Assembly: GCF_003018235.1 (NCBI RefSeq)
Contig: NZ_CP027439.1
Reading direction: 5' to 3' (one strand)
Length of the DNA stretch: 64,000 bases
Source: Escherichia coli
GTDB taxonomy: Bacteria; Pseudomonadota; Gammaproteobacteria; Enterobacterales; Enterobacteriaceae
Position 1 is the first letter of the stretch. The number at the start of each line of letters is the position of its first letter. Positions 45,001 to 51,000 of the stretch are shown in pieces. The position numbers are program-made.

Positions 45001-48000
45001 CGCCGCCAGCAGTGTGATGAGCGGGTGGCGCAAGCTTTTATACAGGCAAAACAGCGCTATGGCGCGCCCCGTCTGACGCAGGAGTTGCGTGAGGCCGGCC
45101 ATGGCTGGAACCGTAAAACGGTGGCGGCCAGTCTGCGACGTCAGGGATTATGGGCCAGAGCGGCGCGTAAGTTCAAAGCCACGACAAACAGCCGGCATAA
45201 CCTGCCGGTGGCACCGAACCTGTTGCAACAGGACTTCAGTGCTACGGGGCCGGACCAGAAGTACGTGGGCGACATAACGTATCTGTGGACAGAGGAAGGC
45301 TGGCTGTATCTGGCGGTGATTATCGACCTTTATTCGCGCCGGGTGGTGGGCTGGTCGATGTCGGAACGAATGACGGCGGAGCTGGCGTGCAATACGCTGA
45401 AAATGGCGCTGTGGCGGCGGAAGATGCCGCGCGGCGTGATAGTCCACACCGACAAGGGGAGCCAGTACTGTTCCCATGATTATCAGAATGTTATCAAAGA
45501 CAATGGACTGATATGCAGTATGAGCGCGAAGGGCTGTTGCTACGATAACGCCTGTGCGGAAAGCTTCTTCCACAGCCTGAAAGTGGAGCTAATCCACGGA
45601 GAGAGGTTCAACACGCGGGAGGAGATGAAATCGGCGGTATTCGAGTATATCGAGATAGACTACAATCGGCACCGACGGCATAGTGCCAACGGCGGGCTAA
45701 GCCCTGTGCAATTTGAGGAAAGCAACCTCGCTTAAGGCTGTGTCCACCGTTGCTGGGCAAGATCAAGAAACTTTATAAAAAAGGGAAGGAGTAAGACCTT
45801 CCCAACAAGAGGTTAGAACCACAAACAGATCGCATATAAGAACTATATGCATATATCATGCTATCGATGAATGAGTATGATGTCATCACTTTTGTTAAAA
45901 AGTGAGAGAATAAATAACATAAAACTCTTATTTATTCTTGATAGGGGATAATCCCTTTAGTGGATATTTATGGAGTTTGAATGTTGAAAAGTGCACATCA
46001 GGAACTTACAGAACTGTATTAATGTCGTGTATAATCATTGATAATTATAGAAAATCAATTTATGGCTTTATAAAAATAAAAAACAGAACCCACCATAAAA
46101 ATGGGTTTTGTAATACTATGATTGGTTATGGGAAGAATATTATAATATTCTCTTTTCAGAGGTTATCACCATATAGATCAAGTATCAATATGCGGCATAA
46201 TAATAATGGGAGATAATTAACATTACACCCTAATTTAATCAAATTGATATAATGTTTTTCCTAATTTTTGTATCAATTGTGAGTTATATATTGTATAACA
46301 AATCAATATAGATAAGCTTTTCAACATGCTTTATGTAAACATATTTCCCACTGTCATATATGTATATGTTTTTTTATAATCATTCAAAAAAGAGAATCAA
46401 TAAAGGTGCCAGATAAAGCACCTGAAATGATGAATAAATCTAGATGATAAGGCGTCGCAGATAATGACGGAAATTTATAGTGATAACACCTTTTTTAACA
46501 TAGACAGTATAATTGGCACTGACACAAATGAATCAATATGTTGTGATGGTCGAAAACTGATAATAATAATTATAAGTAATAATATGCTAGGTTGTGGGAG
46601 TAACTACTTCTGCCAAATAATAGAACACATCAACAGGAAGAATAAAAAGAGTGACATAAATATCATAATCTTCTGCCGAAGGCGAATGGTTAATATAATA
46701 TCCGATACGGTGAATAATAGAATACTATGCCTCCCCTACCATAGCTTAATAAGAGGCATGAGTATATCAATGCTTAAGGGGATATTTCTGATGAGTTTTA
46801 GGGAGCGAAATATAAACTTAAGGGTGACCCCTGCAGAACAGAGGGTTATTGACTTATATCTTCATGGTAAGACATACGATGAAATAAGTTCTATTCTCGG
46901 AATAAAGCCAGGAACAGCATCAATTTATAAGAACAAAGTGATTAAAAGATTCGGCGTCTCGAATGAGTTGGAATTATTTTATAAGATGTATATCATAAAC
47001 AAAGTAAAAGATTAAATTAACAGGAGCAGAATACATCCCCCCCTCGTCCGTGACAGGGGGGGCTTACTCAAGCAAGCTAACTGATAATCAATTAATTGTC
47101 AGAACGATACGCCTGTTAGGACTTAAACATTTTCTGCGTTCTTTTTTATCTTTCTGTGCACAAAAAACTATAGGCTCAGAACTTCCTTTAGCTACCGTGG
47201 TTATGTCTTTGTCGGGAACGCCGTTGCGAATGAGAATATCTTTAACAGCATTTGCCCTTCTTTCAGATAAACGCATGTTGTAATTATCACTTCCTATATT
47301 ATCAGTATAGCCGTTAATTACAATTTTACTATGTTTTTTACCATTGTTTGCTAATTTCTTGACTATAGTTGAAATAATTTCAATACCTTCACTCCCGATT
47401 GCTGAAGAATCAAAGGGAAATAGAACGTCCGCTTTTATTTCTAGCCTGCCATGGTCAAATTCATCCTTAGCAACAGAATGTGCAGGAGCAGAGTGCGGGG
47501 GCAGTTTGCAGTTATCAGGAAGCCAATATACTGACCCCACATTCATATTCTTGTCAAACAAGACTTTGAATTGACAGATATGGTGACCACTGTTATTTTC
47601 GAAATTGAATACATAGTCCCATTCCCTTACTCCAGCTACACCTTCGGAAAAGTGGGGACGACCGATTAAATTATAAATCTGATCTTTATTCATACCCTTT
47701 TTAATCATATATACATTATCCCAGTTTGGCCACGACCCGAATTGAGAACCATTATGATTAAATGTGGATTTTTCTATAGGTGGCCAAACTGGCTTTTCGC
47801 TCCGACCATCATCAGAAACTTTGCTAAGATTACCACAACCAGATAATAATGATAATGACAATAAAGTTAGTACGGTTCTTCTAAACATTTTTGCTTATTC
47901 TCTTATATTTATCCAATATGATTACCACTGATAACCGACGCCCGCCCCAACAGAAAAATTGCCACGTGTATTTTGTCCGGCATTCATTTTCAGAATAACC

Positions 48001-51000
48001 TTACCGTTGTCAGAGATTGTGGAGACACCAAGAGCAATAGCACTTTCACCGCCATATCCACCAACTCCAAGTCCGAGCAGACTTTTACCAGGTAGGTATG
48101 CTTGTGGTATAGCCGACATTGCTGCTGCGGAGGCTCCAACACCACGTATGTCTTTATTTAAACCATCAATACGATTATTAAGTTGATTGAACTTATTACC
48201 TATTTGATTGATCTCACTCGTGTTTTTACTAACCTGTTGGTTTGTCGAGTGTAACTGACTTCCATTTACTGCGTCTGTTGATGTTTCTGATACAACACCG
48301 GGTGCCACATTCTGAATCTGACGTTCATTATTTACAGAACCAACAGAAATAACAGCTGTTGTTTTCCCTGTTTTTCCAGCAGCAGGAGCGTTGTTTATAC
48401 TATATGAGCCAGTATGTGCTCTCTCCGCTTTTGCCCCATGACCAAGAGCAATAGACCCTGCAGGTGCTTTATCACTTACAGTCGAGTTGTGACCAATCGC
48501 TATACTATCATTGGCACTAGCCTGAGCAACGGGGCCAACTGCTATGCTGTTTTTTCCTCCCGGAACAGGTTCTGATTCAGAAGAATTAGCTTTGAAATAT
48601 TTACTGTTGGTGGTTATATTCGTTAACTGTTGTGATACTGAATTATCCAGTTGTTTTAGTTGAGCAACATTGACTGCATCAGAATCTGCTGAACCTGCAG
48701 CCACATTTGTTATCTGCCGTGTTTTCGACTCGCCATTATACTTCCCACCGAGAGAAACAGCTCCACTTGTAGAGATCCAAGTCGCACTTTTGTCTTTAAT
48801 TCCCCCCTTAGGGGTCCATGCATCTGTTGCGCCAGCAGCCCGATCAGCGACAGACATGCTGCCGAGAGCCACACCATCTTCAACAGTAGCCTTACTGAAG
48901 CTTCCCAGAACTGTTGAACGAGCCGATTCAGCGGCTGTCTTTGTACCAAGAGCTACACTTGAGATTTCGTGAGCACCAGCCATAAAGCCAATAGCAGAGG
49001 AGCCATCTCCTTCTGCATTGGAATTATTCCCAACAGAAACAGATGCTGCGCCTCCTGATGTTGCGCCATATCCAACACTGGTTGCCATTTTCCCAACCGA
49101 ACTGGAGAAAGAACCAATACTGACACTCCCCGTTTTTTCTGCAGACGCTTTCGCTCCCAGACTTATTGATTGACTCCCTGTGGATAAGGAACTGGTACCA
49201 ATACTAATGGCATGTTCAGATGTGCTGTGAGCATTGTAACCTTGTGCGAAAGCGTTATCTGCCGTTGCCTCAGAGAATTTCCCTAAAGCCATACTGTATT
49301 CTTTACTTGCTTTTGCTTGTCCACCTATTGCAACTGAACCTGTACCAGAGGCATCCCCACCTATTGATACTGAAGCCCTCCCCGTCGCGAAACTTGACGG
49401 ACCAAGGGCCACGGAGCTATAGGCGGCCTTAGAGCTGCTTCCTACAGCGATAGCCGCGTCATCGCTTCTAGCATCAGTGCCAATAGCAATACCATTGTTT
49501 TTAGCTGAGGCTTTATATCCTATAGCAGCGGCGCCACTATCGCCTGCGACTGATTTTGTTCCAATTGCAACAGAGAATGGACCACTGGCAGTGTTCTCCT
49601 GACCGATAGTAATTGCATGAGTACTTGATGAAGTATTTTTATCTCCTATTGCAACAAGACCGAAATTACTTACCGTATTGTGTTTATCACTATCCATCGT
49701 CACTCCACTGAGATTTACTGCGCTGCCTGAGACTTTTGGTATACTTGTCTCCGCTGCATGAGTGCCGGATAAATAGGCCATGCTAATAATAAAAGATATT
49801 TTCTTTAGTTTTTTTTTCATTTTTTGCTTAGTTCCTTTACTTATAATCATAGCGATTATAATTTTACTATTTATATTAAACTAACATAATATTCAACATT
49901 ATCCGGGAATGGTTGTTTGTTAAAAAAAATGGATATCACTTGGCTGATTACATGTAATATTTTGTTATATAACGTAAATTTTCATCTGTGATGTTTTGTT
50001 GCATTATCAAAAAATTCATTGATTACAAATAAAATTGAGAAATTTAATGTAAAAAAAATCCTAATTAAAGCAATGTCATGTTCTTTGTTATTTGGCATGA
50101 GCTTATGTTCTGATAATTAGACCTTTGTATTGTTATCATTCATGATAAGAACTGTATTCACCTTATTGATTTGTTTGTTGAATATAATATTACTTTTCTG
50201 AAAAATATTACAAGGCTGTTCATTTAAATATCCACGCGGATAATATTTGATTATTTACGTAATATACGCTAATACTCGTTTTTATGTTAGTTACAGAAAA
50301 TCTGATTATTAATATCTTGTAGCTGGATAAATGTAGAAATCATACCATATAGAAAAATCACCATTATTCTGTATATCCTTGAATAAGTAACAATATTATC
50401 ACATTATTGTCCTGTGACATGAGGTGAGCAACAGGAATAAAATCTCATTGCTGTGACAACTGAATACTCAGGGGACAGACTGGCACTTGTAGTTACCTCA
50501 AATAAAATTAGTGGGAACTAGATTCTGTGTGGCAAAAACGGTGCAGGATAGCATATTTTCTGTGTGTCAGAATAGGTGAGTGTAATAATAAATGTATGAA
50601 AAATACAAGCTGAAGTCTAGTTTTTATATAAACACTTGAAATTCCAATGATATATTGAACCAGCCTAGTATTACCCGGCTGTTTATTATTTATCTGCTTA
50701 TAACCTATGTTTTTGTAGATGCTTTATCGATTCACCCTCACATAATTAATTATTTGAAACGCATATGTATCTTGAAAGTTAAATGGTTGTACATACAATA
50801 TTGAATTGACTGAGTTAAAGTTCAGTTGGTTTGGTATGTATATAACGTATATAGAACAATAAAAAGACAATGAATACAATATATTCCTTAAAATATAGCC
50901 ATATAGCAAAAAGCTTTATAGCAGTTTCTGAATTAACAAAAAAAGCAAACAAAAGAGGTATAAGAAGAATAACTCATGTGTCATTAGTTATTTTTTTGCG

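Follow-up and report, generated by a model that had tools for sequence, protein, structure and literature searches.

The window analyzed here is a stretch of 64,000 nucleotides (nt) of Escherichia coli contig NZ_CP027439.1 (RefSeq assembly GCF_003018235.1). It contains an AT-rich block (45766-50869) in which a gene for a trimeric autotransporter adhesin (TAA) is followed on the same strand by a lipoprotein gene and faced by a convergent regulator gene. We consider it probable that the adhesin and lipoprotein genes form a two-gene operon of the TAA-TpgA type, that this operon has its own, divergently evolved regulator, and that the block is a foreign cassette of low guanine-plus-cytosine (GC) content carried on IncFII plasmids of E. 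coli. The features of the block are listed below, with protein lengths in amino acids (aa).

47922..49820, minus strand: TAA gene (632 aa; 642 aa from an alternative ATG at 49850)
about 49755-49820, minus strand: adhesin signal peptide, by inspection (MKKKLKKISFIISMAYLSGTHA/AE)
48858-49625, minus strand: YadA-like head repeats of the adhesin (Pfam YadA_head)
48597-48716, minus strand: neck/stalk 1 of the adhesin (Pfam YadA_stalk)
48420-48557, minus strand: small second head of the adhesin (Pfam)
48189-48320, minus strand: neck/stalk 2 of the adhesin (Pfam YadA_stalk)
47925-48107, minus strand: membrane anchor of the adhesin (Pfam YadA_anchor)
47088..47888, minus strand: TpgA-like lipoprotein gene (266 aa), 33 nt 3' of the TAA stop codon
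47835-47888, minus strand: lipoprotein signal peptide with a clear lipobox, LSGC18 (predicted lipidation at Cys18)
47538-47738, minus strand: BamE-like domain of the lipoprotein (residues 51-117; Pfam BamE, 6e-14)
47133-47423, minus strand: OmpA_C peptidoglycan-binding domain of the lipoprotein (residues 156-252; Pfam OmpA, 8e-23)
47037..47062, no strand: CCCCCCC-N12-GGGGGGG hairpin between the convergent stop codons (26 nt)
46464..47015, plus strand: regulator gene (183 aa), convergent to the operon
46827-46976, plus strand: C-terminal GerE/LuxR-type helix-turn-helix of the regulator (residues 122-171; PF00196, E = 2.7e-6)
45766..46463, no strand: AT-rich non-coding region 5' of the regulator gene (28 per cent GC)
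49821..50869, no strand: AT-rich, divergent control region that separates the TAA gene from a protease autotransporter gene (1049 nt, 28 per cent GC)

Among 5426 complete E. coli genomes, two contain the whole block, in each case on an IncFII plasmid. One is pSCU-111-1, recovered from a rectal swab of a human, in which the block is 99.7 per cent identical to that of the window; the other is p100 of the canine strain 317 (96.5 per cent). For the exact regulator protein, the index of the assembly collection lists 240 blocks, and the cassette was present on all 10 contigs that were read. A diverged cassette has the same order of genes (TAA, lipoprotein, convergent regulator), with ibrA-ibrB next to the regulator gene; its proteins are 69 per cent (adhesin), 63 per cent (lipoprotein), and 66 per cent (regulator) identical to those of the window.

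The adhesin had been predicted to be a 632-aa YadA-like TAA with a canonical C-terminal anchor, and this prediction holds. The open reading frame (ORF) is free of frameshifts, and its product ends in ...GYQW. The domain annotation proposed along with the prediction recovered head, stalk, and anchor: YadA_anchor (PF03895) matches residues 582-642 of the 642-aa ORF (E = 2.7e-18), accompanied by two YadA_stalk domains (4e-13 and 3.5e-11) and more than 10 YadA_head repeats. The start at ATG 49820, which gives 632 aa, agrees with the RefSeq (PGAP) annotation of both block-bearing plasmids and with the length of the 69 per cent identical homolog. The Pfam domain search found no ESPR extension at the N-terminus. 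By its anchor, head repeats, neck/stalk, and signal peptide, the protein classifies as an intact, uncharacterized type Vc TAA, and it is predicted to form surface trimers that mediate adhesion or autoaggregation.

Identity of the adhesin to a characterized one, a possibility raised in the original prediction, was checked and is rejected. The 90 per cent identity cluster of the protein is small, its next relative is an unnamed variant that is 69 per cent identical, and all other proteins are at most 37 per cent identical. Proteins of the UpaG/SadA type are about 29-31 per cent identical to it, and no Eib structure is among its solved-structure matches at E <= 0.001. On pO113-type plasmids, a search with the adhesin at E <= 1e-20 matched the LH0147-like gene alone. 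Among solved structures, the C-terminus matches Hia best (E = 4.6e-25), and it also matches the transmembrane part of AtaA (9vnj_A; 5e-8). Compared to the 69 per cent identical homolog, the ratio of non-synonymous to synonymous substitution rates (dN/dS) amounts to 0.16 for the whole gene, with 0.25 for the head and 0.036 for the anchor. These values indicate that the adhesin gene is under purifying selection and that the exposed head is its fastest-evolving part. The codons of the signal peptide contain an A9 tract (49809-49817), directly 3' of ATG 49820. Phase variation through this tract was considered as well, but it is unsupported, as the length of the tract is constant in three plasmids.

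The lipoprotein gene was found where it had been predicted, directly 3' of the TAA gene and on the same strand, and the expected OmpA domain is present. The analogy to SadA/SadB that the pairing had evoked did not survive: no SadB chain is among the 44 solved-structure hits of the lipoprotein, which consists of a BamE-like and an OmpA_C domain and has TpgA of Acinetobacter as its best NCBIfam match (144 bits, residues 55-263, near full length). The name TpgA stands for trimeric autotransporter adhesin- and peptidoglycan-associated protein. The N-terminal domain is matched by the corresponding domain of TpgA (PDB 9vnj_B) with E = 4.8e-14, compared to 0.015 for the best BamE structure, a roughly 1e11-fold better value. 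Against the TpgA model, scores of 129-160 bits were obtained for every relative tested from E. coli and Pasteurellaceae. By sequence, the cassette lipoproteins and these relatives group as a sister group of TpgA-type partners and not as strict TpgA orthologs. Sorting of lipoproteins is governed by the residue that follows the lipidated cysteine (the +2 rule); in the window protein, Cys18 is followed by Gly, and the lipoprotein is therefore predicted to be sorted to the outer membrane. Residues D196 and R211 of the OmpA motif are nearly invariant among the homologs, and we assume, from what is generally known of OmpA-like domains, that they bind peptidoglycan. Relative to their homologs in the diverged cassette, the lipoprotein and the regulator have a dN of 0.26, with dS saturated. 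An HSAPA unit lies in the linker that joins the BamE-like domain to the OmpA domain (about 47430-47500), and a 276-aa variant (P0122) has two extra copies of it; this expansion suggests a length polymorphism of the periplasmic spacer.

How a TAA and its TpgA partner fit together is known from the AtaA-TpgA structure (PDB 9VNJ), an A3B3 complex in which three TpgA N-domains sit against the AtaA barrel on its periplasmic side (PMC12523085). The two proteins touch through the pairs K64-D3601 and D65-K3576 and through a hydrophobic tip formed by L80/F81, with D3601 located in the beta2-beta3 loop of AtaA; the substitutions K64A and F81A weaken binding, and TpgA binds peptidoglycan (PMC12523085). 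The K64-D3601 pair is conserved in such cassettes, 91 per cent of TpgA-like genes have a TAA gene upstream, and the TpgA cluster includes Escherichia (PMC12523085). A separate survey reported 644 TpgA homologs that adjoin TAA genes and a lowered display of AtaA upon loss of TpgA (bioRxiv 10.64898/2026.01.22.700529).

Both sides of the electrostatic contact are conserved in the window. In the lipoprotein, K68/D69 (within ...NKDQI...) correspond to K64/D65 of TpgA, and none of the 11 homologs in the alignment deviates at either position. In the adhesin, whose anchor aligns with the barrels of Hia, AtaA, and YadA, the motifs PGK and SDNG align with AtaA K3576 and D3601, respectively. Both motifs are present in AtaA, in Hia, and in all five TAAs linked to E. 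coli cassettes, whereas YadA has VNES at the position of SDNG. The tip positions of TpgA (L80/F81) are occupied by V84/A85 in the window lipoprotein, by Ile-Ala in its 63 per cent identical variant, and by LF, II, or IV in the partners from other cassettes. The Val-Ala tip could be a sign that the interface to the barrel of the adhesin has been re-engineered.

The pairing of a TAA with a lipoprotein of this type recurs in other E. coli cassettes. In one of them, a 1152-aa, ESPR-bearing TAA with a near-identical anchor is followed by a BamE-like/OmpA lipoprotein. The LH0147-type cassette (a TAA of ~1440 aa plus a lipoprotein) adjoins ehxCABD on pO113-like plasmids and has a copy on p100. That anchors are common to the cassettes and heads differ suggests modular exchange. 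LH0147 was listed as a putative TAA in 2009 (PMC2681110), and we found no functional study of it. The second cassette of p100 (L002, 21934-28757; on a pO113-like plasmid, L016, 2058-7512) comprises genes for a PapB/FocB-type regulator, the ~1440-aa TAA, an OmpA-family lipoprotein, and a further protein with a YadA C-terminal domain.

The regulator had been described as LuxR-type. Its convergent orientation and its GerE helix-turn-helix stand; the label itself has to be qualified, as neither an autoinducer-binding domain nor a recognizable phospho-acceptor receiver is present. Specifically, no Autoind_bind or Response_reg match was found by Pfam, and an alignment of eight family members has no invariant Asp in the N-domain, with other motifs conserved. 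The protein is not a quorum-sensing LuxR. The RefSeq annotation includes its last 74 aa alone; the 183-aa ORF is 66 per cent identical to the diverged-cassette regulator over 179 aa, without gaps and with the N-domain included. An AlphaFold2 (AF2) model of low confidence (pLDDT 61.6) can be aligned from end to end with RcsB, FixJ, VpsT, and EvgA, with template modeling (TM) scores of at most 0.47 (RcsB). The model suggests that the alpha/beta N-domain is receiver-like and lacks the phospho-acceptor.

Relatives of the regulator are few. A word-based search returned eight clusters, and every cluster with a named source is from E. coli; HMMER, run over 1.84 billion representative proteins, retrieved a handful of full-length relatives. 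Among the loci of relatives that were inspected (L011-L013, L017, and L019-L020), a 48 per cent identical protein is encoded convergently to a chaperone-usher fimbrial operon, a 30 per cent identical one directly upstream of a pertactin/AIDA-type autotransporter gene, and a 27 per cent identical one directly upstream of ibrA-ibrB. These neighborhoods are suggestive of an association of the family with adhesin loci. A general link between the family and ibrAB is unsupported, as a gene of this family is missing from a typical chromosomal ibrAB island. A broader proposal, that the regulator belongs to an undescribed and very small family of portable switches serving adhesin loci that E. coli acquired horizontally, is possible, although we regard it as doubtful. 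The Eib TAA genes are reportedly activated by IbrA and IbrB. Should the regulator act jointly with IbrAB, its coupling to the cassette would amount to a new regulatory circuit for trimeric adhesins.

Between the stop codons of the regulator and lipoprotein genes, the predicted C7/G7 hairpin is present (47037-47062). It folds better than shuffled sequence, with RNA folding z-scores of -2.8 on the plus strand and -3.55 on the minus strand. No T-run follows it on either strand, and the terminator scan makes no call. The hairpin is probably a bidirectional transcription stop or a stabilizer of RNA 3' ends. The diverged cassette has a different G/C-cored, A/T-flanked hairpin at the same position (AAAGGGGAT-N6-ATCCCCTTT), which supports a role in ending convergent transcription. 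The length of the arms varies among 13 otherwise near-identical copies (the window, L001, L002, and L021-L030): 6/6 in five copies, 8/8 in three, 7/7 in two, 8/7 in two, and 6/5 in one. Strict covariation of the arms, as seen in three plasmids (6/6, 7/7, and 8/8), is weakened by the 8/7 and 6/5 copies, and we make no claim of selection. Homopolymer slippage, quasi-palindrome correction, or assembly error are possible sources of the pattern.

The composition of the block is foreign, in agreement with the predicted horizontal acquisition. The fraction of GC is 0.367 in the block (45766-50869) and 0.284 in its leftmost part (45766-46463), compared to 0.490 in the whole window. At third codon positions (GC3), the three block genes have 0.30-0.375 and the traI-like gene of the same window has 0.66; the foreign composition therefore reaches the coding sequence, beyond the spacers. 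A GC3 of ~0.30 would fit an origin in Pasteurellaceae. Two elements that flank the block, and lie outside the cassette, provide its context:

44511..45765, plus strand: complete IS3-family insertion sequence, the left boundary of the block
50870..52802, plus strand: pseudogene of a Pic-like serine protease autotransporter (SPATE), decayed and oriented divergently to the adhesin gene, an adjacent island remnant

The original prediction of an AT-rich block that follows the IS3 element is correct on the left, where GC drops at the end of IS3 (0.575 GC), and needs adjustment on the right, where the proposed boundary at 50950 runs 80 nt into the protease pseudogene that starts at 50870. The IS3 element has imperfect terminal inverted repeats of 39 nt (44511-44549 and 45727-45765) and two ORFs, orfA (44573-44872) and orfB (44911-45735), both of which match NCBIfam transpos_IS3 (orfB with 344 bits). 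It has no target-site duplication (the flanking bases are GTA and AGA). In relatives of the cassette, its place is taken by ibrA-ibrB-like genes, which encode PAPS-reductase/DUF3440 and IbrB-like proteins (L002, 10119-11974; L003, 10207-12050). The counterpart of 45766-46463 in these relatives is the spacer between ibrA and the regulator gene. The first base after IS3 (45766) is also the first with homology to p100, and IS3 is about 20-30 bp from where ibrA would start. Given ibrAB in the relatives, the homology edge at the end of IS3, and the missing target duplication, we conclude that IS3 displaced one flank of a cassette that was already in place and that it did not bring in the island, contrary to its proposed role as a marker of the acquisition.

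Two configurations of the locus can thus be distinguished. The p100 type has ibrB-ibrA followed by the regulator, lipoprotein, and adhesin genes and then by the gene for an intact SPATE of 1371 aa. In the window type, which is also that of pSCU-111-1 on the left, UbiD-LysR-YhbP-IS3 genes are found instead of ibrAB, and the protease is in fragments. These fragments correspond to residues 1-731 of the 1371-aa p100 protein, fall into several frames, and are truncated at 52802. The best solved-structure match of the p100 protease is Pic (1470 bits), and its gene is intact in several draft assemblies as well. The cassette in the window is therefore partly eroded on both sides. Divergence from p100 is highest in the control region 49821-50869 (6.6 per cent, the maximum of the block), is 5.2 per cent in 45766-46463, and falls to 0.36 per cent in the regulator gene. 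Promoter-like matches in the AT-rich control region are not above the shuffled expectation, and the region has no Rfam match.

Further from the cassette, the region left of IS3 (38000-44200) carries a cluster for a UbiD/UbiX-type decarboxylase, a LysR regulator gene, and a YhbP-family gene. Positions 1-33000 contain a long series of large same-strand ORFs, including one of 1756 aa that we take to be traI. A 77-bp fragment at 53976-54051 is 86 per cent identical to p100 sequence just past ibrB, beside a remnant of a Tn3-family transposase; it hints at a past rearrangement between the two flanks.

Under the TAA-TpgA reading, the adhesin would be exported by Sec and would trimerize, with the last ~60 residues of each chain contributing four beta-strands to a 12-stranded barrel in the outer membrane. 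The barrel would display a YadA-like head on a short neck/coiled-coil stalk, resulting in adhesion or autoaggregation. The lipoprotein, presumably co-transcribed with the adhesin, would receive its lipid at Cys18 and be inserted into the inner leaflet of the outer membrane. There, three copies of its BamE-like domain would dock on loops that the barrel exposes to the periplasm. Lys68 of the lipoprotein is predicted to contact the Asp of the SDNG loop, and Asp69 the Lys of the PGK loop. Binding of the OmpA_C domain to peptidoglycan would brace the fiber against extraction and improve its surface display. The G/C hairpin would stop transcription where the operon and the regulator gene converge, and the regulator, combining a receiver-like domain without the aspartate with a LuxR-type helix-turn-helix, would control the operon, positively or negatively, from the AT-rich upstream region.

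The architecture, the linkage, and the electrostatic pair agree with this reading, and several observations weigh against it. The lipoprotein scores below the equivalog cut-off of the NCBIfam TpgA model, which is 350 bits, and it has Ala where TpgA has the aromatic F81 at its tip. The AF2 model of the lipoprotein has a confidence of 63, and of <50 in the tip loop; a fold search with this model returned OmpA-like domains alone and nothing new on the N-domain. The closest homologs outside E. coli, from Pasteurellaceae, are 44-49 per cent identical over the full length of the lipoprotein, with some named PlpD, and in the two genomes examined, they are located at housekeeping loci with no TAA gene beside them. 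As for regulation, the connection of the regulator to the operon is one that we infer, and ibrAB is absent from the window.

The Pasteurellaceae homologs are the main support for an alternative explanation, in which the lipoprotein is a general PlpD/OmpA-type tether between the outer membrane and peptidoglycan that travels with the adhesin gene, does not bind the adhesin specifically, and helps any envelope with large surface fibers. A linkage of the PlpD-like homologs to TAAs is unsupported in the two genomes checked, and since PlpD-type genes occur without a TAA neighbor, the BamE plus OmpA fold need not imply a dedicated partner. The Ala at the tip points in the same direction, as the aromatic residue is required for full AtaA-TpgA binding. 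However, the tight linkage (33 nt) is kept in at least four diverged E. coli cassettes that have different passengers and near-identical anchors, and the Lys/Asp contact pair is kept on both partners, whereas YadA has no Asp at the aligned position. Moreover, because Hia, a TAA of Pasteurellaceae, carries the contact Asp, PlpD-type proteins might serve TAAs (possibly several) in trans. We therefore regard a general tether as quite unlikely. The PlpD-type proteins of Gallibacterium and Pasteurella (L008, L009, and L010) retain the Lys-Asp pair and have a Leu-Phe/Tyr tip.

The lipoprotein could also be a transient export helper for passenger secretion, as in a SadA/SadB-like pair, and not a permanent anchor. 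In both systems, the lipoprotein gene is directly 3' of the TAA gene, and because loss of TpgA is also reported to cut AtaA display, a helper effect is expected from either family. The lack of SadB similarity in the solved-structure search and the BamE-like plus OmpA domains argue against this explanation, as does the Gly at +2, which predicts sorting to the outer membrane; SadB is a trimeric lipoprotein of the inner membrane (PMC12523085). Surveyed SadB homologs also form a separate, Enterobacterales-only set (bioRxiv 10.64898/2026.01.22.700529), and we consider a SadB-like helper highly improbable. Alternatively, the cassette could be a silent or decaying remnant on the window plasmid, its flanks degraded, its AT-rich control regions silenced, and the adhesin not made. 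The IS3 element in place of ibrAB without a target duplication and the frameshifted and truncated Pic-like protease gene are consistent with such decay, and control regions with 28 per cent GC are typical targets of xenogeneic silencing, which may act here. Yet all three ORFs are intact. In the comparison with p100, the adhesin gene has 22 synonymous and 19 non-synonymous differences (omega 0.27) and the lipoprotein gene has six and three (omega 0.13), and the regulator protein is 100 per cent identical between the plasmids. In addition, the IS3-type configuration is found again in several independent assemblies. A silent remnant is therefore unlikely, and the TAA-TpgA-type operon remains our preferred reading.

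If this reading is correct, the cassette adds an unstudied adhesin, and possibly an adhesin-specific regulator, to the accessory genes of IncF plasmids in human and canine E. coli. TAA-TpgA complexes have been structurally defined only recently, and for one giant adhesin of Acinetobacter. The E. coli cassette would be a convenient test system, as it offers a short adhesin (632 aa), a tractable host, and a natural Phe-to-Ala change at a binding residue. It could be used to test how general the tethering of adhesin barrels to peptidoglycan is and how the interface co-evolves. Its least ordinary aspects are the tiny regulator family at adhesin loci and the Phe-to-Ala change at the tip of the partner.

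Compared to known systems, the cassette is a new example of an established arrangement and not a new kind of system. Its architecture is shared in general terms with Saa, Eib, and UpaG/EhaG, which are TAAs of E. coli that have been characterized. Hia of Haemophilus influenzae is the best solved match of the anchor, and its head has no close identity to that of the window adhesin. The SadA-SadB pair of Salmonella resembles the cassette in that a TAA gene is followed by a lipoprotein gene that affects adhesin display, but the window lipoprotein is unrelated to SadB, has other domains, and is predicted to reside in the outer rather than the inner membrane. The LH0147-type cassette is likewise carried on E. 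coli plasmids and likewise consists of a TAA gene followed by a gene for a BamE-like/OmpA lipoprotein. The C-terminal 227 aa of its TAA are 65.6 per cent identical to the window adhesin, with a nearly identical anchor. It differs in its ~1440-aa passenger, in its head (~30 per cent identical), in its lipoprotein (42 per cent identical, with a Leu-Phe tip), and in being preceded by a PapB/FocB-type regulator gene, with no convergent LuxR-type regulator. AtaA-TpgA of Acinetobacter sp. Tol 5 shares with the window pair the succession of a TAA gene and a gene for a BamE-like plus OmpA_C protein; the N-domain of TpgA is the best structural match of the window lipoprotein, and the Lys/Asp residues of TpgA (K64/D65) and of the AtaA barrel loops (K3576/D3601) are kept. 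The window pair differs from it in the length of the adhesin (632 aa, compared to 3630 aa in AtaA), in the tip (Val-Ala in place of Leu-Phe), and in the TpgA score (144 bits with a cut-off of 350), and its cassette lies on a plasmid and includes a convergent regulator gene dedicated to it.

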